In this document: positions 10,987-50,879 of the stretch, in pieces
Layout of the letters: each line of letters opens with the position of its first letter
Numbering within the stretch: the stretch's first letter is position 1
Assembly: GCF_047607465.1 (NCBI RefSeq)
Contig: NZ_JASGCY010000061.1
Coordinates: 15,541-79,540, forward strand
Direction of reading: 5' to 3'
DNA from: Microbacterium sp.
GTDB lineage: Bacteria > Actinomycetota > Actinomycetes > Actinomycetales > Microbacteriaceae
Length of the DNA stretch: 64,000 nucleotides
Made by a program: the position numbers and the translations under genes
The notes under the pieces: generated by a model
Told to the model about the DNA's origin: nothing
The model's input: only the letters and a program-made list of their open reading frames with translations
Database searches by the model: none

Positions 10987-13320
10987 GTGCGCGTGACCGC
11001 CCCGAACACCCCCACCTCGCACGTCCCCGACTCCGTCGAGAACGCGATCGCGACGCCCGAGAAGGAGCAGCCGTACGCGGCCCTCGGCCTCAAGGACGAC
11101 GAGTACGCGAAGATCCGCGAGATCCTCGGCCGACGCCCCACCTCGGGCGAGCTGGCGATGTACTCGGTGATGTGGTCGGAGCACTGCTCCTACAAGTCGT
11201 CCAAGAACTACCTGCGCCGGTTCGGCCAGAAGGTCTCCGACGAGATGAAAGAGCGCCTCATGGTGGGCATGGGCCAGAACGCGGGCGTCATCGACGTCGG
11301 CGAGGGCTGGGCGGTCACCTTCAAGGCCGAGTCGCACAACCACCCCTCGTTCATCGAGCCGTTCCAGGGTGCTGCGACCGGCGTCGGCGGCATCGTCCGC
11401 GACATCATCTCGATGGGCGCCCGCCCTGTGGCCGTGATGGACGCCCTCCGCTTCGGCGCGATCGACCACCCCGACACCGCCCGCGTCGTGCACGGCGTGA
11501 CCAGCGGCATCAGCTTCTACGGCAACTGCCTGGGCCTGCCGAACATCGGCGGCGAGACGGTGTTCGACGCCGTCTACCAGGCGAACCCCCTCGTCAACGC
11601 GCTCGCGGTCGGCGTGCTCCGCCACGAGGACCTCAAGCTCGCCAACGCCACCGGCGTCGGCAACAAGGTCGTCCTCTTCGGCGCGCGCACGGGCGGCGAC
11701 GGCATCGGCGGCGCCAGCATCCTCGCCTCCGACACCTTCGCCGACGGCGGACCCACCAAGCGTCCCGCCGTGCAGGTCGGCGACCCCTTCGCCGAGAAGG
11801 TGCTCATCGAGTGCTGCCTCGAGCTCTACCGCGACGAGCTCGTCGAGGCGATCCAGGACCTCGGCGCCGCCGGCATCTCCTGCGCCACCAGCGAGCTCGC
11901 CGCCAACGGCAACAGCGGCATGCACGTCTCGCTCGACAACGTGCTGCTGCGCGACCCCACCCTGACCGCTGAGGAGATCCTCATGTCGGAGTCGCAGGAG
12001 CGCATGATGGCGATCGTCGCGCCCGAGAAGCTCGACGCGTTCCTCGCCGTCGTCGGCAAGTGGGACGTCGAGACCTCGGTCCTCGGCGAGGTCACCGGCG
12101 ACGGCCGCCTCGTCATCGACTGGCAGGGCGAGCGCATCGTCGACGTCGACCCGTCGACCGTCGCCGTCGACGGCCCGGTCTACGACCGTCCTGTCGCCTA
12201 CCCGACGTGGATCGACGCGCTGCAGGCGGATGCCGCGGAGAACCTCCCCCGCTCGAGCGACCCCGATGCGCTCAAGGAGCAGTTCCTCAGCCTCATCGCC
12301 TCCCCGAACCTCGCCGACACACGCTGGATCACCAACCAGTACGACTACTACGTACTCGGCAACACCGCCCTCAGCTTCCCCGACGACGCCGGCATGATCC
12401 GCGTCGACGAGGAGTCGGGCCTGGGCTTCGCGATCTCGACGGACGCCAACGGCCGTTACTGCCAGCTCGACCCGTACGCGGGCGCGCAGCTCGCGCTGGC
12501 CGAGGCCTACCGCAACGTCGCCGTCACCGGCGCCGTGCCCACAGCGATCACCGACTGCCTGAACTTCGGCTCGCCCGAGAACCCCGAGGTCATGTGGCAG
12601 TTCGGCCAGACGGTCGACGGCCTGGCAGACGGATGCTTCGAGCTGGGCACCCCGGTCACCGGCGGCAACGTCTCGTTCTACAACCAGACCGGCGACGTGC
12701 CGATCCACCCGACACCCCTGGTCGGCGTGCTCGGCATCATCGACGACGTCTCCCGGCGCATCCCGTCTGGGTGGCAGGACGTTGGTCAGAACATCTACCT
12801 CCTCGGCACCACCTCCACCGAGCTCTCCGGATCCGCCTGGGCCGAGGTCGTGCACCAGCACCTCGGCGGCCGGCCGCCGAGGGTCGACCTCGCCGGTGAG
12901 AAGCGTCTCGCCGGGCTGCTGTCCGCCGCCCGTGACGAGTGGCTGATCTCCTCGGCGCACGACCTCTCGGAGGGCGGCCTCGCGCAGGCGCTCGCCGAGG
13001 GCGTCTCCCGCTTCGGCGTCGGCGCCCGCGTGTGGCTGAACGAGATCATCGAGCGTGACGGTGTGGATGCGGCATCCGCTCTGTTCTCCGAGTCGACCGG
13101 CCGCGTGATCGTGACCGTTCCGCGCGAGGACGACGTGAAGTTCCGCGGGCTCTGCGAGGGCCGAGGCTACCCGGTGCTGCGCATCGGCGTGACCGACAGC
13201 GAGCCGCAGCTTGAGGTGCAAGACGTCTTCACCGTACCGGTCGCCGATCTGCGCGAGCGCTCCCAGGCAACCCTGCCCGCAGCCTTCGGCCCCACCGTCG
13301 CAGAGGCAGCGAGCGCATGA
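10987..13320 (+). CDS. purL: Phosphoribosylformylglycinamidine synthase subunit PurL
   Basis: [17 protein letters not shown] and a full-length PurL-like sequence. GTG start. Confidence 0.95.
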
Positions 13321-39462: not shown

Positions 39463-39693
39463 CGTGTTGTCCATCGGATGCTGCGGCATTGGGACACCGC
39501 GGGCCTGCTCGTGCCCGCCCACGTGGACGAGTCCAGCGGCTACCGCTCGTACGACCCGTCGCAGTTGGAACGGCTGCACCGGATCGTCGCGCTGCGGCAG
39601 CTCGGCTTCGGCCTCGACGACATCGCGCAGATCCTCGAGCAGGGCGTCGACGCCGACCGCCTCGCGGCGATGCTGCGGGTGCGCCGGGCCGAG
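39463..39693 (+). pseudogene. Decayed MerR-family regulator gene (HTH internally deleted, C-terminus lost)
   Basis: VLSIG in one frame abuts MLRHWDTAGLLVPAHVDESSGYRSYDPSQLERLHRIVALRQLGFGLDDI in another. About 11 codons of the HTH are missing. MerR-like sequence ends near RRAEV. Confidence 0.5.
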
Positions 39694-39719
39694 GTGCGCT
39701 CGTGCGCGGGACCGCCGAC

Positions 39720-39938
39720 TCAGAGCGCGCCGGTCAGGGCGGCCACGCCGACGAGCACCGAGACCACCGCGAGCACGAGGGCGATCGCGATGAGCACGAC
39801 GTGCACCCGGAGGAACGCCGTCGCGCGGCCGTTCTCGTCGCGTGCGCGGGGGTCGCTGGCGATGCGCGTGTAGAAGCGGGGCCACACCACCACGTTGAAG
39901 GCGGCATTGAGGAAGAGGACGACGGCGAGGGCGATCAC
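39720..39938 (-). CDS. Small two-TM membrane protein (SCO4848-like family)
   Basis: VVWPRFYTRI..GRATAFLRVHVVLIAIALVL pattern. 72 aa. Confidence 0.55.
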   Translation of the reverse strand: MIALAVVLFLNAAFNVVVWPRFYTRIASDPRARDENGRATAFLRVHVVLIAIALVLAVVSVLVGVAALTGAL

Positions 39939-40038
39939 CCCTCCACGCTAGCCCCCGTTCCGGCACTGCGCCGTGAATATATCGACCGCGATCATGTATC
40001 AGAAATCGCTTGCCCGGCTCCTTGCTGGTGTGATCACA

Positions 40039-40656
40039 ATGGAACTCATGATCGACGGCGCACCGGACGCCGATCTCGAGCAGGCCGACGACGGTGCCGC
40101 GCGGTGGCAGCAGGCCGCGCGGAGCTTCCGCGCCTGGCGAGACGGAGACAGCCGCGCGATGGACGACCTCGTGCGGCTGATGACCCCTGTCCTCTGGCAT
40201 GTCGTGCGCGCGTACGGTCTCGACCGCACCCTCGCCGAGGACGTCGTCCAGTCGGCGTGGCTGGCGCTCGTGCGCGGTCAGGACTCCATCAGCGATCCGA
40301 AGGCCGTGTCGGCCTGGCTCATCACCACCGCGCGTCGCGAGGCGTGGAGGGCCAGCAAGGCGCATGGCCGGGTGGACACGACGGATGCCGACGGCCTCGA
40401 CCGCCTGCTGCCGCAGCAGCGGTCCGCCGAGGAGCACGCGGCCATCGGGGACGAGAGCCGTCGGCTCTGGCTGGCCGTGCAGGCGCTCGACGAGCGCTGC
40501 CAGCGCCTGCTCCGCGTCGTCGCGTTCGACGACCGCCCCGACTACGCGAAGCTCGCCGCCGACCTCGCCATGCCCGTCGGCAGCATCGGCCCGACCCGCA
40601 AGCGGTGCCTGGCCAAGCTCAGAGGACTTCTCGATCCGGCAGGAGGGGAATCATGA
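40039..40656 (+). CDS. ECF-type sigma-70 family RNA polymerase sigma factor
   Basis: Region 2 (LAEDVVQSAWLALVR) and region 4 HTH (YAKLAADLAMPVGSIGPTRKRCLAKLR). Start 40039 preferred; track start is 39973. Confidence 0.85.
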   Translation: MELMIDGAPDADLEQADDGAARWQQAARSFRAWRDGDSRAMDDLVRLMTPVLWHVVRAYGLDRTLAEDVVQSAWLALVRGQDSISDPKAVSAWLITTARREAWRASKAHGRVDTTDADGLDRLLPQQRSAEEHAAIGDESRRLWLAVQALDERCQRLLRVVAFDDRPDYAKLAADLAMPVGSIGPTRKRCLAKLRGLLDPAGGES

Positions 40657-41108
40657 CCGACCACGAAGACGCCGAGCTGTTCGCGCGGCTGCGCTCGCTG
40701 TGGACCGACGTCGACCCGATGCCGGCCAGCCTCATCGACCGCATGATCGCCGCCGTGGCCACCGACTCCCTCTCCGAGGAGTACGCGCTGCTGACCCTCA
40801 TCGATCAGCCGCTGGGCGCGGTGCGCGCGGAGACGGATGCCCTCACGCTGCAGTTCAGCGACGGCACCACCAGCATCCTCCTGCACGTCACGACGAGCGC
40901 GAATGGCAATCGCCGCATCGACGGCTGGGTCGACACCGCGACGACGGAGATCGTGCTCGCGCAGGGCGACAGCATCCGCTCCACCGTCCCCAGCGAGACC
41001 GGCCGCTTCATCTTCGACGATGTGCCGCAGGGTCTCGCCAGAGTGCGGCTGACGGCGCAGGATGCGGATTCCGAGCGCACCGTGGTGACGCCGCAGTTCG
41101 AGTTGTGA
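40653..41108 (+). CDS. Hypothetical 151-aa protein coupled to the sigma factor; C-terminal half resembles a carboxypeptidase-regulatory-like beta sandwich
   Basis: ATG overlaps the sigma stop (ATGA). No TM and no zinc anti-sigma motif. GRFIFDDVPQGLARVRL strand pattern. Confidence 0.6.
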   Translation: MTDHEDAELFARLRSLWTDVDPMPASLIDRMIAAVATDSLSEEYALLTLIDQPLGAVRAETDALTLQFSDGTTSILLHVTTSANGNRRIDGWVDTATTEIVLAQGDSIRSTVPSETGRFIFDDVPQGLARVRLTAQDADSERTVVTPQFEL

Positions 41109-41147
41109 ACCGAGCAGTTCGGGTCGTGAGCACGGAAGGGGAACGAC

Positions 41148-42707
41148 ATGGATCAGCCCAAGGGGTGGAGCTGGCAGGACCGCGCTGAGGGGTCGATCCT
41201 CCGCGGGACGGCGCTCGATCCGAGCGTCGAGCCGGTGGACGGCGTGCGCGCCTACCCGACCGCCTACCTGCCAGAGCACCTGCTCATCACGCAGGATCTC
41301 GACCACGAGGCCAATGATCGCGAGATCCAGGCGCTGCGCGACGCCGCCGGCGCCTTCGGGTGGATTCTGGAGATGGAGTCGCCAGACGCTGGCCGAGGGC
41401 TCGGCGCCGACGGAGAGCTGATCCCCGGCGTGCCCGGGTTCCTGCGCGCCCGGCTGACGACGCCGGAGGAGCCGCAGCGGGGCGAGTCGCCGGTGGCGCC
41501 GGATGCCTGGCGGGTGCTGCAGCGCGCCCGGCGCGCGACGCGCAGCACGATGCCGCGGACGAGCCTGGAGCACGTGCTCGCGATCGACCCCGTCGGGCTC
41601 AATCCGTTCAGCAAGACGAACCCCTTCAGCAAGACGAACCCGTTCAGCAAGACGAACCCGGTGCGCGGCGGGGGCGGCAGCGACGACTACCTCGAACCAG
41701 GGCGCGGCGCGCGCCAGCCGGTCGGCTGGGTGGGGGCGGCACCCGCGCGCGGGCCGGCACCGAAAAGCGGACGGCGCCCGGTCATCGCGGTGCTCGATAC
41801 CGGATGCGGCGTGCACGACTGGCTGCCCGACGACATCGTCACACGGGGCGCCGAGCTCGACGGCGTGCCGGTGGGTCTCACCGACGACGCCGACCCCGAG
41901 CTCTACCCCGACCTGTACGGGCAGCTCGACGGCGAGATCGACGCCGTCGCCGGGCACGGCACGTTCATCGCGGGGCTGATCCGCCAGGCGGCACCGGATG
42001 CCGACATCCTGTCGATCCGCATGGCGGGCTCGCTCGGCGTCATCGACGAGAGCACGTTCCTCGTGACCGTGGCGCAGGTCGTCGAGCTGCTGCGTCGGCA
42101 TCGCGAGGACCCGCGCACCGGGCATCCGATCGACGTCATCAACCTCTCGCTCGGCTACTACCACGAGACGCCCACCGACGGGCTGTTCAGCACGACCCTG
42201 TTCCAGCTGCTCGCCGAGGCGCGGCGGTTGGGCTGCGTCGTCGTCTGCTCGGCGGGCAACGACGCGATCGACCGTCCGTCCTTCCCCGCGTCGCTGTGGC
42301 CATGGCCGGGCGCCGACAACGGCATCCGTCCCGATCGCGCGGCGCCGCACGTCTCGGTAGGAGCGCTGAACCCCTCGGGGCAGTCGATCGCCCTGTTCTC
42401 GAACGTCGGCCCGTGGGTGCAGGTATACGCGCCCGGGGCTGCGGTCGTCAGCACGTCACCGGGATTCACGGGCGGCCAGCAGGCCGCGAGCCGTGCCGAT
42501 TTCGACGGGTTGCGGCGTGAGACCCTCGACCCCGACGACTACCGCGGCGGGTTCGCGGTGTGGAGCGGCACCTCGTTCTCAGCGCCGTACGTCGCCGGAC
42601 GCATCGCCGCGCAGTTGGGCTCGGTACCGCTTGCCGGAGCGAGTGCGGAGACGGCGCGGGATGCTGTCGCCAAGGTTCTGGAGGCGCTGCCGACGCCGCG
42701 GGTGTGA
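41148..42707 (+). CDS. S8 (subtilisin-like) serine peptidase without recognisable signal peptide
   Basis: Triad motifs VLDTGCG (Asp), GHGTFIAG (His), GTSFSAPYVAG (Ser). The N-terminus is acidic and non-hydrophobic. Confidence 0.88.
   Translation: MDQPKGWSWQDRAEGSILRGTALDPSVEPVDGVRAYPTAYLPEHLLITQDLDHEANDREIQALRDAAGAFGWILEMESPDAGRGLGADGELIPGVPGFLRARLTTPEEPQRGESPVAPDAWRVLQRARRATRSTMPRTSLEHVLAIDPVGLNPFSKTNPFSKTNPFSKTNPVRGGGGSDDYLEPGRGARQPVGWVGAAPARGPAPKSGRRPVIAVLDTGCGVHDWLPDDIVTRGAELDGVPVGLTDDADPELYPDLYGQLDGEIDAVAGHGTFIAGLIRQAAPDADILSIRMAGSLGVIDESTFLVTVAQVVELLRRHREDPRTGHPIDVINLSLGYYHETPTDGLFSTTLFQLLAEARRLGCVVVCSAGNDAIDRPSFPASLWPWPGADNGIRPDRAAPHVSVGALNPSGQSIALFSNVGPWVQVYAPGAAVVSTSPGFTGGQQAASRADFDGLRRETLDPDDYRGGFAVWSGTSFSAPYVAGRIAAQLGSVPLAGASAETARDAVAKVLEALPTPRV
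41601..41660 (+). repeat. In-frame 18-bp tandem repeat x3.3 encoding NPFSKT NPFSKT NPFSKT NP
   Basis: aatccgttcagcaagacg / aaccccttcagcaagacg / aacccgttcagcaagacg. Lies in the linker before the S8 catalytic domain. Confidence 0.9.
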
Positions 42708-42808
42708 TCGGAAGCCGGGCGGCTGGGCGTTCGAGCACCGCGCCCGGCATCCGCCTCACCCCCCGCGTGCCCTTCCCCTGACCCGGCGCACCACGGCATG
42801 CTGGGACA

Positions 42809-45364
42809 ATGCCCCTCTCCGCCGGTGAACTGCACCGCCGCGGGCTCGAAGCGGCCAACACCCGGCGGTACGCGCAGGCCCGACGGGACCTCGCCGCGGC
42901 GTCCGCCCGCACCGACGACCCCGACCTGCGCGCGCGCATCGACGGCACATCGGCCTATGTGCTCGCGCAGACCGGGGAGCCCGCCGCCGCCGAGGCGCTG
43001 TCGCGCGAGGCGCTCGCCCGACCGGGGCTCGCCCCAGAGACCGTCGCCGTGCTGTGCGGGCAGCTGGGCGTGCTGCTCATGCATTCCGGGCGGCTCGACG
43101 AGGCCGACGCCATGCTGACCCGCGCGATCGATGCCATGCCGGGCGATTCGGTGGAGTTCGCGCACTGCCTGATGAACCGCGCCATGGTGCGGATGCAGCG
43201 GCACGAGCTCGACGAGGGCATGGCCGACCTGGAACAGGCGGCGCTGACCTATGAGGCCGCAGGAGACTGGGTCTCGAACGCCGAGGCCCGCCACAATCTC
43301 GGCTACGCGGCGCTGCTGGGCGGAGACCTCGTCACGGCGCTGCGGCTGATGACGCAGTCGCGGCCGGTCTTCGCAGAGACGAGCGAACTCGCCACCGCGA
43401 TCAGCGATCTCGACCGCGCCGAGGTGCTCCGGGACGCCGGGCTCACCACCGAGGCCGAGGCGCTGCTCGGCGAGGTCGCCGCGCGCTTCGGCGCGCAGCG
43501 CATGCGGCAGGCGCGCGGGGAGGCCGAGTTCCACCTCGCCCGTTCGCTGCTGCGCCATGACGCTCCTGCGGCCGTGCGCACGGCGCGCACAGCGGTGCGC
43601 CGGTTCACGGCACTGCGCAGCACCGGCTGGGCGGCGAGGGCCGAGGCGGTGCGGCTCGAGGCGGCGGTGCGCGCGGGCAGGCCGCCTTCTGCGCAGGAGT
43701 TCGCGGCAGCATCCGATGCCCTGATCCAGGGCGGATTCCGCACCGAGGCGGCAGCGCTGCGCCTGACCGCACGACAGGCCGGTCACGGTCCGCGACCGCG
43801 CATCGGGGCCGATGCCCCGGTGCCGTTGCGCGTGCGCGACCACGAGGTGCGGGCGGCGCGCTCGGCCTCCCGAGGGCGCGACGCGGAGGCCCGGCGCATC
43901 GCCGCCGCTGGACTCGACCTGCTGGCGAACGGTCAGGAGTCGTTCGGGGCGCTCGACCTGCAGTCCTCGGTGAGCATGCAGGCATCCGATCTCGTCTTCA
44001 CCGGGCTCGCCGCGGCGGCGCGCTCGCGACGTCCGGAGGTGCTGTTCGAGTGGTCGGAGCGGGCGCGGCACCTCAGTCAGCAGGTCACCCCGGTGCGCCC
44101 TCCCCACGATGCGGACCTCGCCGCCGACCTCGCGGCGCTGCGGATGCTGCGCGCCGATCTCGCCGGCTCCGATTGGACGGGCGACGCCAGGGTGCGCGCT
44201 CTGCGCGATCGGGTGCGGGAGCGGCAGTGGTCGACGACGACGACCGGGCGGGCGCTCACCCGGCTCGGGCTCGCCGAGGCGCAGTCGCTGCTCGACCGCG
44301 AGACCGCCGTGCTCTCGTACGTGTACACCGGCGCGGAGCTGCAGTGCGTCGTGGCCACGGCATCCGATGCGCGGATCGTTCCGCTCGCCTGGCGGCGCGT
44401 GCAGGAGGCGCTCGACGGGCTGCGTGCCGATCTCGATGTCGCCGCCCTCACCCGCGGCGGGCCGATGGCGGCGTTCGTGGAGCGCGCGCTCGACGAACGC
44501 CTGGCCCGGCTCGACGCGGAGCTCCTCGCCCCTGCGCGCGCCGCCGCAGGCCCGGTTTCACGACTCGTGCTCACGGTGCCCGGCATCCTCTCCGGCATCC
44601 CCTGGGCGATGCTGCCGGGGATGCATGCCACCCCCTTCACCCTCGCGACCTCGGTCTCGCGCTGGTCCGCCGACCGCCCCCCTTCCCCTCCTTCCCCTCC
44701 TCACCCCGGCCGACGCCCCACCTGGGCGTCCGCGCCCCACCTGGGCGACGTCGCTCAGGTGGGGCATCGCGGCGCAGATGGGGCGTCGGCGGAAGAGGGC
44801 GGGGGGAGCGCGGCGGGCGGGGCGGGGAGAGGGGGGAGCGGGTTCGCGGCGGGGCCGCGGGTGCCGCGCGCGCTCGACGAGGTGCAGCGGGCGTCCGCCG
44901 CGTGGGAAGAGGCCACAGTGCTCACCGGCGACGACGCGCGGGTGGATGCCGTGACCGCCCTCGCCGCGCGCAGCGAGGTGCTGCACATCGCAGCCCACGG
45001 ACGCCATGCCGCCGACAACCCGCTCTTCTCCGGCCTCGAGCTCGCCGACGGCACGCTGTTCGGCTACGACGTCGACCTCATCGAGCGCACACCAGACACC
45101 GTCGTGCTCTCGGCGTGCGAGCTCGGCCGCTCCTCGGTGCGCTGGGGAGAGGAGGCGCTCGGCATGACCCGGGTGTGGTTGCACGCCGGGACGCGTTGCG
45201 TCATCGCCGCGCCCGTCGTCGTAGCGGATGCTGTCGCCGCCGAGCTGCTCGCGGCGCTGCACACCGGGCTCGCGCGGGGCGAGGATCCGGCCGCGGCGCT
45301 GGCCGCGGCATCCGTCTCCACCGGGCTGCGCGCCCCGTTCCAGTGCCACGGATCCGGATTCTGA
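42809..45364 (+). CDS. TPR-CHAT protein (helical repeat N-terminal half plus caspase-like CHAT protease domain)
   Basis: About 400 aa of TPR-like repeats. CHAT His (VLHIAAHGRH) and Cys (VVLSACELG) dyad. Confidence 0.85.
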   Translation: MPLSAGELHRRGLEAANTRRYAQARRDLAAASARTDDPDLRARIDGTSAYVLAQTGEPAAAEALSREALARPGLAPETVAVLCGQLGVLLMHSGRLDEADAMLTRAIDAMPGDSVEFAHCLMNRAMVRMQRHELDEGMADLEQAALTYEAAGDWVSNAEARHNLGYAALLGGDLVTALRLMTQSRPVFAETSELATAISDLDRAEVLRDAGLTTEAEALLGEVAARFGAQRMRQARGEAEFHLARSLLRHDAPAAVRTARTAVRRFTALRSTGWAARAEAVRLEAAVRAGRPPSAQEFAAASDALIQGGFRTEAAALRLTARQAGHGPRPRIGADAPVPLRVRDHEVRAARSASRGRDAEARRIAAAGLDLLANGQESFGALDLQSSVSMQASDLVFTGLAAAARSRRPEVLFEWSERARHLSQQVTPVRPPHDADLAADLAALRMLRADLAGSDWTGDARVRALRDRVRERQWSTTTTGRALTRLGLAEAQSLLDRETAVLSYVYTGAELQCVVATASDARIVPLAWRRVQEALDGLRADLDVAALTRGGPMAAFVERALDERLARLDAELLAPARAAAGPVSRLVLTVPGILSGIPWAMLPGMHATPFTLATSVSRWSADRPPSPPSPPHPGRRPTWASAPHLGDVAQVGHRGADGASAEEGGGSAAGGAGRGGSGFAAGPRVPRALDEVQRASAAWEEATVLTGDDARVDAVTALAARSEVLHIAAHGRHAADNPLFSGLELADGTLFGYDVDLIERTPDTVVLSACELGRSSVRWGEEALGMTRVWLHAGTRCVIAAPVVVADAVAAELLAALHTGLARGEDPAAALAAASVSTGLRAPFQCHGSGF
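44708..44792. repeat. Palindromic repeat family A, copy 4, located inside the CHAT coding sequence
   Basis: ggccgacgccccacctgggcgtccgcgccccacctgggcgacgtcgctcaggtggggcatcgcggcgcagatggggcgtcggcgg. Confidence 0.85.
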
Positions 45365-45416
45365 ATCTTTTTCTCCACTCGATGTATCAGACCGGCGGGA
45401 ACCTGCTCTTGATCGT

Positions 45417-45606
45417 CAGAAGATGCCGATGCGAAAGGGCTTCGAGAAGGCGGAGCACGGGAGGCGCAGTCGAAAGGGGGCTTCTGTGCACTGGGGAGTG
45501 CAGGAATCACGACGGGTCATCTTCTGCCCAGGGGGTGCCGTGGTTGCAACCAGGCACCCCCGCCAGGGGCGGGTGCGGCGGACTGGGGCCGCCGCACCCG
45601 CTTTCC
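45417..45606 (+). ncRNA. Candidate structured RNA (unclassified) in a convergent intergenic region
   Basis: 9-bp closing helix cagaagatg (45417-25) / catcttctg (45518-26), with a competing cttctg at 45481-86. 12-bp hairpin at 45531-61. 13-bp hairpin at 45569-601 followed by TTTCC. Strand assignment is tentative. Confidence 0.3.
45569..45606 (+). terminator. GC-rich 13-bp stem-loop followed by TTTCC; possible intrinsic terminator
   Basis: gcgggtgcggcgg-actgggg-ccgccgcacccgc-tttcc. Confidence 0.35.
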
Positions 45607-49530: not shown

Positions 49531-49540
49531 CCTCTCAGCT

Positions 49541-49609
49541 TTCAACTTTTTCCTCTCTCAGATTTCCACTTTTTCCTCTCTGAAATGTCCACTTTTTCCT
49601 CTCTGATAT
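49541..49609. repeat. Three tandem 23-bp direct repeats immediately upstream of the ATPase start (49623)
   Basis: tcaactttttcctctctcagatt / tccactttttcctctctgaaatg / tccactttttcctctctgatatc. Strikingly AT-rich for this genome. Confidence 0.85.
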
Positions 49610-49622
49610 CTAGGATCGGCGC

Positions 49623-50879
49623 ATGGCCGCCTACCTTCCCCGCGTCGTGGACACGCAGATCGCCGAGGCGCTGGCCCACCCAGGAGCCATCGTCCTCGAA
49701 GGGGCGAGAGCCTGCGGAAAGTCGGCGACCGGACGTCAGCACGCGGCGAGCAGCATCCAGCTCGACCTCGATCCGACAGCCGTCCGTCTTGCCGAGCTCG
49801 ACCCGGCCCGGCTGCTCGTCGGAGCCCGACCTCGGTTCATCGACGAGTGGCAGCTCGCGCCGTCCGTCTGGAATCAGGTGCGCGCAGCAGTCGACCGCGA
49901 TGAAGACGGCCGCTTCCTCCTCGCCGGATCCGCTCTGCCTGCCGACGACGCGACGCGCCACTCGGGCGCCGGGCGGATGCTGCGCCTGAGGATGCGCCCG
50001 ATGGCGCTGGGTGAATCCGGCCATTCCTCTGCCGAGATCAGCCTCGCGGCCGTCGTCCGTGCTCCGACCGACTCCGTCTCCGGCGCCTCTCCGATCACGA
50101 TCCCCGAACTCGCGGAACTCACCGCCCGAGGGGGATGGCCAGGACTCCAGAGCCTCTCCCCGAGGCTCGCCTCCGAACGCCTGCGGTCCCATCTCGACGA
50201 CACGGCGAGGATCGACCTCCCCCGCCTCGAGGGGGAGAGCCGACGTGATCCGCAACGTGTGCTGCGCGTCATCCGGGCGCTTGCGCGCAACGTCGGCACC
50301 GAGGCATCGGTCGCCTCCCTCGCGCGCGACTCCTCTGCGGGGGGCGAGCAACCGACCGACGCCACCGTGCAGAACTACCTGGATGCGCTGACCCGGGTCT
50401 TCGTCATCGAGGATCAGCCGTCCTGGGGACCGCACCTGCGCTCAAGGGACAAAGTACGCAAAGCCCCGAAGCGGCACTTCACCGATCCCTCTCTCGCCGT
50501 CGCTGCGGTCGGCGCCGATCCGGACCACCTCCTCGACGACCTTGACTTCTTCGGGCAGGCCTTCGAATCCCTGGTGATCCGCGACCTGCGCACCTATGCC
50601 GCCCCCCTGGGCGGAGTCGTTCAGCACTATCGCGACAGCGCGGGCCGCGAGGTCGACGCGATCGTCGAGCTGCCAGGAGGCGACTGGATCGGTGTGGAGA
50701 TCAAACTCGCCGCATCTCGCGAAGATGAAGCGGCCGCCTCGCTCCAGCGCTTCACCGCGAACATCGACACCTCACGCACCCCTCCGCCGCGTGCCCTGCT
50801 GATCGTCACCGGAGGGCAGTACGGGTACACCCGTGCAGACGGCATCCATGTGGTGCCGATCGGGGCCCTGGCGGCATAG
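49623..50879 (+). CDS. AAA+ ATPase (AAA_14 plus DUF4143 type), paralog 2
   Basis: Walker A GARACGKSA, FIDEWQ, DUF4143-like C-terminal half. Confidence 0.85.
   Translation: MAAYLPRVVDTQIAEALAHPGAIVLEGARACGKSATGRQHAASSIQLDLDPTAVRLAELDPARLLVGARPRFIDEWQLAPSVWNQVRAAVDRDEDGRFLLAGSALPADDATRHSGAGRMLRLRMRPMALGESGHSSAEISLAAVVRAPTDSVSGASPITIPELAELTARGGWPGLQSLSPRLASERLRSHLDDTARIDLPRLEGESRRDPQRVLRVIRALARNVGTEASVASLARDSSAGGEQPTDATVQNYLDALTRVFVIEDQPSWGPHLRSRDKVRKAPKRHFTDPSLAVAAVGADPDHLLDDLDFFGQAFESLVIRDLRTYAAPLGGVVQHYRDSAGREVDAIVELPGGDWIGVEIKLAASREDEAAASLQRFTANIDTSRTPPPRALLIVTGGQYGYTRADGIHVVPIGALAA

Follow-up and report, generated by a model that had tools for sequence, protein, structure and literature searches.

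Group ECF54 among sigma factors of extracytoplasmic function (ECF) was described by bioinformatics (Huang et al. 2015, J Bacteriol 197:2517, via Casas-Pastor et al.). According to the supplement of Casas-Pastor et al. (2021, NAR 49:986; 10.1101/2019.12.11.873521), the group is exclusively actinobacterial, with a CarboxypepD_reg-like protein always encoded at position +1 relative to the sigma factor gene, a subtilase at +2 or -1, and, at +3 or -2, a CHAT protein that contains TPR repeats. The supplement also reports two cysteines in region 4 of some subgroups and no putative anti-sigma factor, and the predicted target promoter, consisting of GTATCAG (-35) and CTCC (-10), agrees with that of Huang et al. 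2015 (10.1101/2019.12.11.873521). Casas-Pastor et al. regard ECF54 as having no clear regulator and point out that genomic context cannot separate the role of a regulator from that of a target. A 2022 review (PMC8999054) places ECF54 among the sigma factors proposed to be controlled by proteolysis. In this work we analyze a four-gene cassette in a 64-kb stretch of Microbacterium sp. DNA (contig NZ_JASGCY010000061.1; ~70% G+C), which we call the window and whose numbering is used for all positions. The cassette occupies 40039-45364 on the + strand and encodes an ECF sigma factor, a soluble protein of 151 amino acids (aa) that we call the partner, an S8 subtilase and a TPR-CHAT protein.

We conclude that this cassette is already known, in the sense that it is a typical ECF54 member, and that the sole new item is a small RNA encoded after the CHAT gene. 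Our overall reading is that the locus consists of an ECF54 operon plus one extra transcription unit, and that the sigma factor would be released by proteolysis of its partner; we assign this reading a probability of roughly 0.55. The initial annotation, made from the window's sequence without database searches, had also arrived at a possible protease-gated sigma switch. That idea is reasonable, but it is not new, since it corresponds to the hypothesis already published for ECF54 (PMC8999054).

The sigma factor very probably belongs to ECF54, because its gene context, region-4 cysteines, promoter motif and actinobacterial origin all agree with the published description. It matches Sigma70_r2 in Pfam (1.3e-10) and the NCBIfam model TIGR02937 for sigma70-ECF proteins (5e-17, over residues 62-218), and is of the ECF type, with regions 2 and 4 only. 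Both region-4 cysteines, located in ERCQRLL and RKRCLAKL, are invariant among 19 sigma sequences. Position +1 is taken by a CarboxypepD_reg-like beta-sandwich protein, as in the ECF54 description, and the TPR-CHAT protein is at +3, which also matches. The subtilase is at +2 in the window and at -1 in Nonomuraea and two other contigs. Identity of the sigma factor is 63-81% across 80 Microbacterium species, and Microbacterium is the source of the nearest relatives of every gene examined. Conservation at the protein level starts at one of two possible start codons (Table 1), and the stretch upstream of them is conserved as DNA motifs.

The four genes form one conserved, tightly packed set that is probably co-transcribed. 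In this respect the initial annotation was accurate: the genes are co-directional, the sigma stop codon overlaps the next start, and the remaining gaps are 39 and 101 bp. Profile searches, which it had recommended, matched Sigma70_r2, Peptidase_S8, CHAT and TPR_12. It had further stated that neither a membrane-spanning nor a zinc-type anti-sigma factor is present, and in our Pfam search, likewise, none of the four proteins matched a zinc-finger family or any other family of anti-sigma factors. None of them has an N-terminal signal-like or membrane-like segment in Kyte-Doolittle profiles (19-residue windows), where the highest score among the four proteins, 2.08, lies inside the CHAT core.

Table 1. 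Features of the ECF54 cassette and its adjoining regulatory elements.
Feature	Position	Strand	Remarks
P1, predicted promoter of ECF54 type	39996..40021	+	GTATCAG 39996-40002 (-35), CTCC 40018-40021 (-10), 16 nt after GTATCA
Palindrome TGTGATCACA	40029..40038	+	Perfect; follows P1 and precedes the start codon of the sigma gene
ECF sigma factor, group ECF54	40039..40656	+	ATG at 40039 (MELMIDG) or 40048 (MIDG); Sigma70_r2, TIGR02937
151-aa soluble partner	40653..41108	+	ATG overlaps the sigma stop as ATGA, preceded by an AGGAGG ribosome-binding site
Cytoplasmic pro-subtilase (S8), probable	41148..42707	+	39-bp gap after the partner gene; Peptidase_S8
TPR-CHAT caspase-like protease	42809..45364	+	101-bp gap after the S8 gene; CHAT and TPR_12
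P2, predicted promoter of ECF54 type	45384..45409	+	GTATCAG 45384-45390, 16-nt gap, CTCT 45406-45409
Structured small RNA, about 148 nt, predicted	~45418..45565	+	Behind P2; covariance model

The initial annotation had noticed that a 10-mer, ATGTATCAGA, is present at both ends, and took this as a hint that the cassette was inserted as a module. The repeat itself is genuine: far from being common in window DNA, it occurs exactly twice in the 64 kb (39994-40003 and 45382-45391) against an expected 0.01 occurrences. Its 5' copy is not, however, the sigma start codon, and its second copy lies 20 nt past the CHAT stop codon. Because ATGTATCAGA contains the published ECF54 -35 sequence GTATCAG, we interpret the copies as -35 elements of promoters and not as insertion scars, and the idea of an inserted module gives way to that of an ECF54 -35 element standing at a fixed 16-nt spacing in relatives as well.

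An alignment of the DNA upstream of the sigma gene at all loci reads ATGTATCA(G), 14-15 variable bases, GCTCCT, TGTGATCACAATGG and the start codon, and the DNA right after the CHAT stop contains the same two blocks with equal spacing. We derived this motif from alignments independently, ahead of finding the published ECF54 promoter. When 1.62 Mb of loci were scanned with the loose pattern GTATCA-N14-17-CTCY, all 155 matches were on the operon strand, with 77 before sigma, 68 after CHAT and 10 elsewhere. Five of these 10 are post-CHAT sites that were displaced by an insertion or missed by the position filter. Another four, in the distant loci L084-L086, precede genes for a sigma factor or a regulator, and the last, in L077, has no explanation. 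A spacing of exactly 16 is seen at 74/77 upstream sites and at 73/73 downstream sites. Within the window, P1 and P2 are the only matches.

The motif extends to more distant relatives. In a Nocardioidaceae contig (L084), two sigma genes have CTCC 6-7 nt upstream of their start codons, a distance that leaderless transcripts would be expected to show, and the motif also precedes sigma in a four-gene metagenome contig that is taxonomically unassigned. In contig L085, which has no S8 gene, the post-CHAT motif precedes a gene for an AAA_16/GerE (STAND-LuxR) regulator, not a small RNA. Judging by these comparisons of sequence, it is likely that the two sites are promoters, and the sigma factor itself probably reads both of them, which would amount to positive autoregulation together with one small-RNA output. 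A separate scan for simple sigma-70 promoters and terminators gave no promoter match and a single terminator-like site, on the minus strand inside the S8 gene. The palindrome TGTGATCACA is nearly invariant in the closer Microbacterium loci and reads TGTGGACACA in distant ones. It may be bound by another regulator as an operator, or it may belong to a second, housekeeping promoter for a leaderless transcript, together with CACAAT, which lies 7 nt before the ATG at 40048.

Behind P2, the noncoding stretch that follows CHAT is conserved also between species whose downstream genes are different. Its predicted product is a structured RNA whose 5' end is joined by a closing stem to the segment just before the terminator, and this stem begins at the predicted transcription start, ~8 nt past the -10 element. 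Enclosed by it are internal hairpins with G-rich loops, of which one is an invariant CUGGGGA, and a GC-rich terminator hairpin follows at 45531-45561. The consensus fold was obtained from a 34-sequence MAFFT alignment. With this independent alignment, 17/29 base pairs are already compensated. After fitting to the covariance model, which favours structure, 95.4% of cells are paired as against 37-61% in slid controls, and 25/29 pairs have changed on both sides. The structure is specific to the + strand, because it contains many G-U pairs. Searches with the covariance model located a single copy at each locus, in every case after CHAT, and 59 of the matches exceed 100 bits.

Searches of Rfam gave no match at gathering thresholds in the whole window, and only noise in the RNA region at permissive thresholds. 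We considered a relationship with Ms1/6S-like RNA and ruled it out; Ms1 is linked to a HAD hydrolase gene, and the RNA region has no match in Rfam, a collection that should contain both Ms1 and 6S. A small open reading frame (ORF) was ruled out as well, as indels in the region are not multiples of three and the ATG is missing in several species. Elsewhere in the window, sequences complementary to the CUGGGGAG loop are no more numerous than expected by chance, and their sites are uninformative. Taking the conserved structure into account, we consider it very likely that the small RNA is real. It is absent from Rfam and previously undescribed; neither a second ECF54-type promoter nor a small RNA after CHAT is mentioned in the ECF54 text and supplements searched. 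At two loci (L014 and L025), about 4 kb separates CHAT from the small RNA. The window contains a second GC-rich hairpin at 45569-45601 (GGGTGCGGCGG...CCGCCGCACCC), between the RNA's terminator and the stop of a convergent chorismate mutase gene, and this hairpin is probably the terminator of that gene.

The partner belongs to a family of 536 clusters at 50% identity (E < 0.001), nearly all of whose members are 145-175 aa long. The only Pfam match of the window's protein is below threshold (CarboxypepD_reg, E 0.0047), and some sources call its homologues 'Carboxypeptidase regulatory-like'. Its AlphaFold2 (AF2) model has a predicted local distance difference test (pLDDT) score of 90 and consists of three parts, namely two helices (3-20 and 27-51), a disordered, low-confidence linker (52-61) and an eight-strand Ig-like beta-sandwich (63-145). 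In a set of 40 diverse members, D21 and P24, which belong to a DPxP turn connecting the two helices, are invariant, as are the linker residue R58 and the sandwich residues F68, R88 and W92. Foldseek returned only generic Ig-like beta-sandwich matches for the model, and the 151-aa sequence and a 40-sequence partner profile, compared with solved chains, gave nothing beyond generic beta-sandwich segments and no match resembling Csx30 or Csx31. We also looked for a natural fusion of sigma factor and partner and rejected the only long match (P0166, 339 aa), which is a frameshifted gene call. One homologue, from M. natoriense (P0010), is named '5,10-methylenetetrahydrofolate reductase' by NCBI/UniRef; its sequence does not support this name, which is apparently an annotation error.

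The subtilase matches Peptidase_S8 (1.1e-22, Pfam). As the initial annotation had stated, its catalytic triad is intact and it has no signal peptide; His270, Asn371 and Ser476 are invariant in 11 homologues, and Asp217 is missing from one truncated gene call only. In the AF2 model (pLDDT 71.5), an N-terminal beta-alpha-beta-beta-alpha-beta domain (~39-145) is followed by a disordered linker (148-190) and the catalytic domain. The protein is probably made as a zymogen with a prodomain-like fold, a modelling-based reading that we adopt because the best structural matches carry a propeptide: the top Foldseek matches are the propeptide-attached forms ProN-Tk-SP, PCSK9, fervidolysin and pro-Tk-subtilisin. 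Alignments with such pro-forms extend over 485-568 columns, versus about 290-330 with mature subtilisins. The disordered linker contains NPFSKT three times (residues about 153-171), encoded by an 18-nt tandem repeat at 41604-41660. Three to five NPF-type repeats are present in all aligned S8 homologues, even at 37% identity, where SPFVNG occurs five times, which suggests a docking or cleavage motif. The ECF54 text and supplements searched mention neither the subtilase's NPF repeats and prodomain-like fold nor a three-part +1 protein with an invariant linker arginine.

The last protein of the cassette has a helical/TPR region of about 560 aa followed by the CHAT domain (Pfam: CHAT, 1.8e-29, and TPR_12). 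The initial annotation had pointed to a His (HIAAHG) and a Cys (LSACELG) in this domain, and both residues, His730 and Cys770 (SACE), are indeed invariant in 15 homologues, three distant contigs included. Between the helical region and the CHAT domain, at about 44660-44850 (residues about 620-680), there is a low-complexity insert rich in Pro, Gly and Ala (PSPPSPPHPGRRPTWASAPHLGDVAQVGHRGADGASAEEGGGSAAGGAGRGGSG). This insert is largely absent from 14 aligned homologues, and only M. natoriense (L001) has a shorter one. A single-sequence search of the PDB gave no match to the CHAT protein. A profile of the 15 homologues matches Csx29 chains weakly (E 0.02-0.09), over ~100 residues of the catalytic core only.

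To compare gene order, we used relatives of the 151-aa protein, which occur in 227 species when one genome per species is scanned. The best 80 of these 227 loci are all from Microbacterium or Actinomycetota metagenome-assembled genomes (MAGs), plus one record labelled Streptomyces; together with two earlier loci, they make up the 82 that were compared. A profile search of the protein database was dominated by Microbacterium sequences; genera beyond Microbacterium were reached by way of cluster representatives, contig look-ups and one match in a plasmid collection. The cassette is single-copy in the 227 species representatives, which belong to one genus. The order sigma-partner-S8-CHAT is found in 75/82 Microbacterium loci, so the synteny that the initial annotation had proposed to survey does exist in many genomes. 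Six of the seven others are cut by a contig end, and in the remaining one (L044, beyond position 12170), S8 is followed by FtsX/MacB transporter genes, with CHAT missing from the next 8 kb. Flanking genes vary between species, apart from a gene of the SCO4848 family that mostly adjoins the cassette, and we saw no fifth conserved gene that accompanies the four among the Microbacterium loci examined.

Beyond Microbacterium, a Nocardioidaceae MAG has sigma-partner-S8-CHAT, and a metagenome contig contains all four genes with a partner that is 29% identical to that of the window. The permuted order S8-sigma-partner-CHAT is found in Nonomuraea gerenzanensis and in contig L088, and another metagenome contig has S8-sigma-partner followed by one large gene. 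In all four distant contigs with called genes, the sigma stop and the partner start overlap or abut.

Several of these loci have features of their own. L088 (GenBank MT838002, 'Bacteriophage sp.', unverified) is a 7.5-kb contig from human faeces with S8-sigma-partner-CHAT and the sole phage hit; it is most likely mis-binned actinobacterial DNA. The single match among plasmid records comes from a chromosome that was catalogued as one. At L041 (12130-17165), a YhcG PDDEXK nuclease gene lies between S8 and CHAT. In the variant without S8 (L085, 8470-13184), the CHAT protein has only 654 aa and a shortened N-terminal region. In the Nocardioidaceae MAG (L084, 5138-5632), a shorter sigma-like gene that matches Sigma70_r2 only is located directly upstream of the ECF54 operon; both sigma genes are apparently leaderless, and the shorter one has its own GTATCAG-N-CTCC motif.

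As for the flanks in the window, the initial annotation had placed the cassette between a decayed MerR gene and a structured noncoding region. Both exist, but it missed the gene between MerR and sigma, whose product is a SCO4848-family membrane protein, small and with two helices (about 39720-39941, minus strand; PF26606 in relatives). In Microbacterium, this gene is usually found next to the cassette on its upstream side; in the window it adjoins what is left of MerR. This remnant (39463-39702) retains only residues 12-91 of a 266-aa protein. M. natoriense has an intact 266-aa MerR at the same position, and in the window genome the effector-binding half is deleted. Downstream of the cassette, genes on the minus strand encode a chorismate mutase and a lactonase (Pfam). 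The G+C content of the cassette is not visibly different from that of its flanks, and no integrase, transposase or recombinase was seen near it. Farther away, an AT-rich 23-mer, CTCTCAGATTTCCACTTTTTCCT, is repeated three times in tandem (49532-49604). Such a sequence is very unusual for DNA of 70% G+C, and its copies lie directly upstream of a 418-aa ORF (49623-50879).

Under our overall reading, the partner would be made in step with the sigma factor through translational coupling and would hold it inactive by means of its N-terminal helical hairpin. The TPR region of the CHAT protein may sense a cytoplasmic cue and thereby activate the caspase-like protease, which would then cut the partner's exposed linker, with the invariant Arg58 as a candidate site. 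The subtilase zymogen might be matured in the same cascade, or might finish degrading the fragments. Freed sigma would amplify its own operon and switch on the small RNA. Our confidence in the parts of this scheme differs. That the partner is an anti-sigma factor is a tentative proposal, for which we see slightly less than an even chance, and it is rather doubtful that CHAT and/or S8 cleave it, although it is a candidate substrate.

A bolder version can be formulated, in which the +1 protein would represent a new class of soluble anti-sigma factor, comprising a hairpin, a cleavable linker and a beta-sandwich handle, and would be cut at the linker arginine by a stand-alone TPR-CHAT protease. 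The system would then be a CRISPR-independent and possibly ancestral counterpart of Craspase-Csx30-sigma, with the pro-subtilase matured in the cascade, possibly by way of its NPF linker, and with the small RNA and its CUGGGGA loops as the main dedicated output. We regard this combination as speculative and unlikely to be correct in all its elements.

It is important to emphasize that a number of points weigh against the protease-release reading. Neither the sequence nor the fold of the partner is similar to a known anti-sigma domain, whether in Pfam, among solved chains or by Foldseek. The subtilase is not indispensable, because it is absent from one related locus, L085, which has sigma, partner and CHAT. 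P1 and P2 are predictions made from sequence. The small RNA is strong in one Microbacterium clade only and weak in three divergent loci, and its covariance model had no match in the three distant contigs that were searched. In the literature searched, we found no experimental study of any ECF54 member. Finally, Casas-Pastor et al. caution that genes neighbouring the sigma factor may be targets rather than regulators.

This caution also fits an alternative in which the proteases are the output of the sigma factor, not its regulators, and in which sigma activity is set in another way, for example by transcription, by an operator at TGTGATCACA or by the redox state of the region-4 cysteines. The 151-aa protein would then be an adaptor, inhibitor or substrate of the proteases, the proteome would be remodelled under stress, and the small RNA would be a parallel output. 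All four genes lie behind the sigma factor's own predicted promoter and are thus regulon members by construction; the cysteines are invariant here and appear in the ECF54 description, and a beta-sandwich such as the partner's is a generic protein-binding fold. However, the overlap between sigma and the +1 gene is kept in distant lineages and through changes in gene order, as is typical of a sigma factor and an anti-sigma factor made in stoichiometric amounts, and an unregulated sigma factor with positive autoregulation would be unstable without an inhibitor. We therefore see in this alternative a serious contender that is nonetheless unlikely. The initial annotation had additionally suggested a conflict system, that is, a CRISPR-independent analogue of Craspase in which infection would activate CHAT and/or S8 and lead to release of sigma or to abortive infection. 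The architecture does resemble that of Csx29 (TPR-CHAT), Csx30/Csx31 and an ECF-like sigma factor (PMC10028731), as well as DdvA-DdvS, whose TPR-CHAT anti-sigma factor has a defence island under its control (PMC11506125), but the match of our CHAT protein to Csx29 is marginal (E about 0.02). The subtilase has some similarity to the IetS/IteS anti-phage peptidases; in PADLOC-DB 2.0, however, this amounts to weak, generic IetS/subtilase matches (1.7e-7 and weaker), and sigma, partner and CHAT have no match. Unrelated insertions in or beside the cassette in a few species indicate that the region is plastic, yet no conserved extra gene was found in the Microbacterium loci examined. The cassette is single-copy, genus-wide and mostly beside the same SCO4848 gene, a pattern that agrees better with vertical inheritance of a regulatory module than with the patchy occurrence of a defence island. 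It has the G+C content of its surroundings and is carried by no genuine plasmid or phage record. The window contains no CRISPR-like array, in line with the initial annotation's own statement. A role in defence thus appears improbable.

The view that the cassette is a mobile module, with the ATGTATCAGA copies as boundary repeats or a target-site duplication, might seem natural from the window alone, where the only two copies of this AT-rich sequence in 64 kb enclose the four genes, and where the MerR gene upstream is decayed. In ~70 species and in other families, however, both copies lie inside bipartite motifs with a fixed 16-nt spacing, always in the orientation of the operon, and these motifs equal the published ECF54 promoter. 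In relatives, the two copies have different flanking bases and sometimes differ from each other, e.g., ACGTATCAGG and ATGTATCAGA in M. natoriense. A conserved RNA lies beyond the right-hand repeat, there is no integrase or transposase nearby, and no shift in G+C is visible. We accordingly give this explanation almost no weight.

Returning to the protease-release reading, the locus is a useful entry point, given that ECF54 is one of the few ECF groups that lack an identified regulator. The anatomy of the partner and subtilase, together with the second promoter and small RNA, are modest additions that make the regulation of ECF54 easier to test. The RNA would be the first candidate member of the regulon outside the operon, and could possibly serve as a simple reporter of sigma activity. 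If the protease-release model is true, control of sigma factors by TPR-CHAT proteins would exist outside CRISPR systems and across Actinobacteria.

In classical anti-sigma proteolysis, RseA is cut by DegS, RseP and ClpXP, and RsgI undergoes autoproteolysis; these cascades run across the membrane and depend on site-1 and site-2 proteases. The cassette would share with them a sigma factor held by an adjacently encoded partner and freed by a protease cascade, but all of its components are predicted to be cytoplasmic, and a caspase-like CHAT protein and a subtilase are encoded in the same operon. With respect to ECF54, the cassette itself shows no difference from the published description, and our proposal of proteolytic control coincides with the published speculation. 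In Myxococcus xanthus, DdvA-DdvS (PMC11506125) likewise couples a TPR-CHAT protein to control of an ECF sigma factor, and CHAT proteolysis has been proposed to bring about release. However, DdvA is one transmembrane protein, with a zinc-binding anti-sigma domain and a periplasmic TPR-CHAT region whose active site is incomplete, whereas our cassette encodes CHAT as a protein of its own, which is soluble, retains the complete His/Cys dyad and contains neither a zinc-type anti-sigma domain nor a membrane segment. In type III-E systems, CHAT cleavage of a partner releases a sigma factor (Craspase gRAMP/Cas7-11 with Csx29, Csx30, Csx31 and CASP-sigma/RpoE). Unlike these, the cassette has no cas genes or CRISPR array, and its activator cannot be an RNA-guided effector; it also has the S8 pro-subtilase as an extra component, and its partner has no detectable similarity to solved chains. 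What the two have in common is a TPR-CHAT protein encoded with an ECF-type sigma factor and small soluble partners, which makes type III-E the best functional analogy for the mechanism that we propose.

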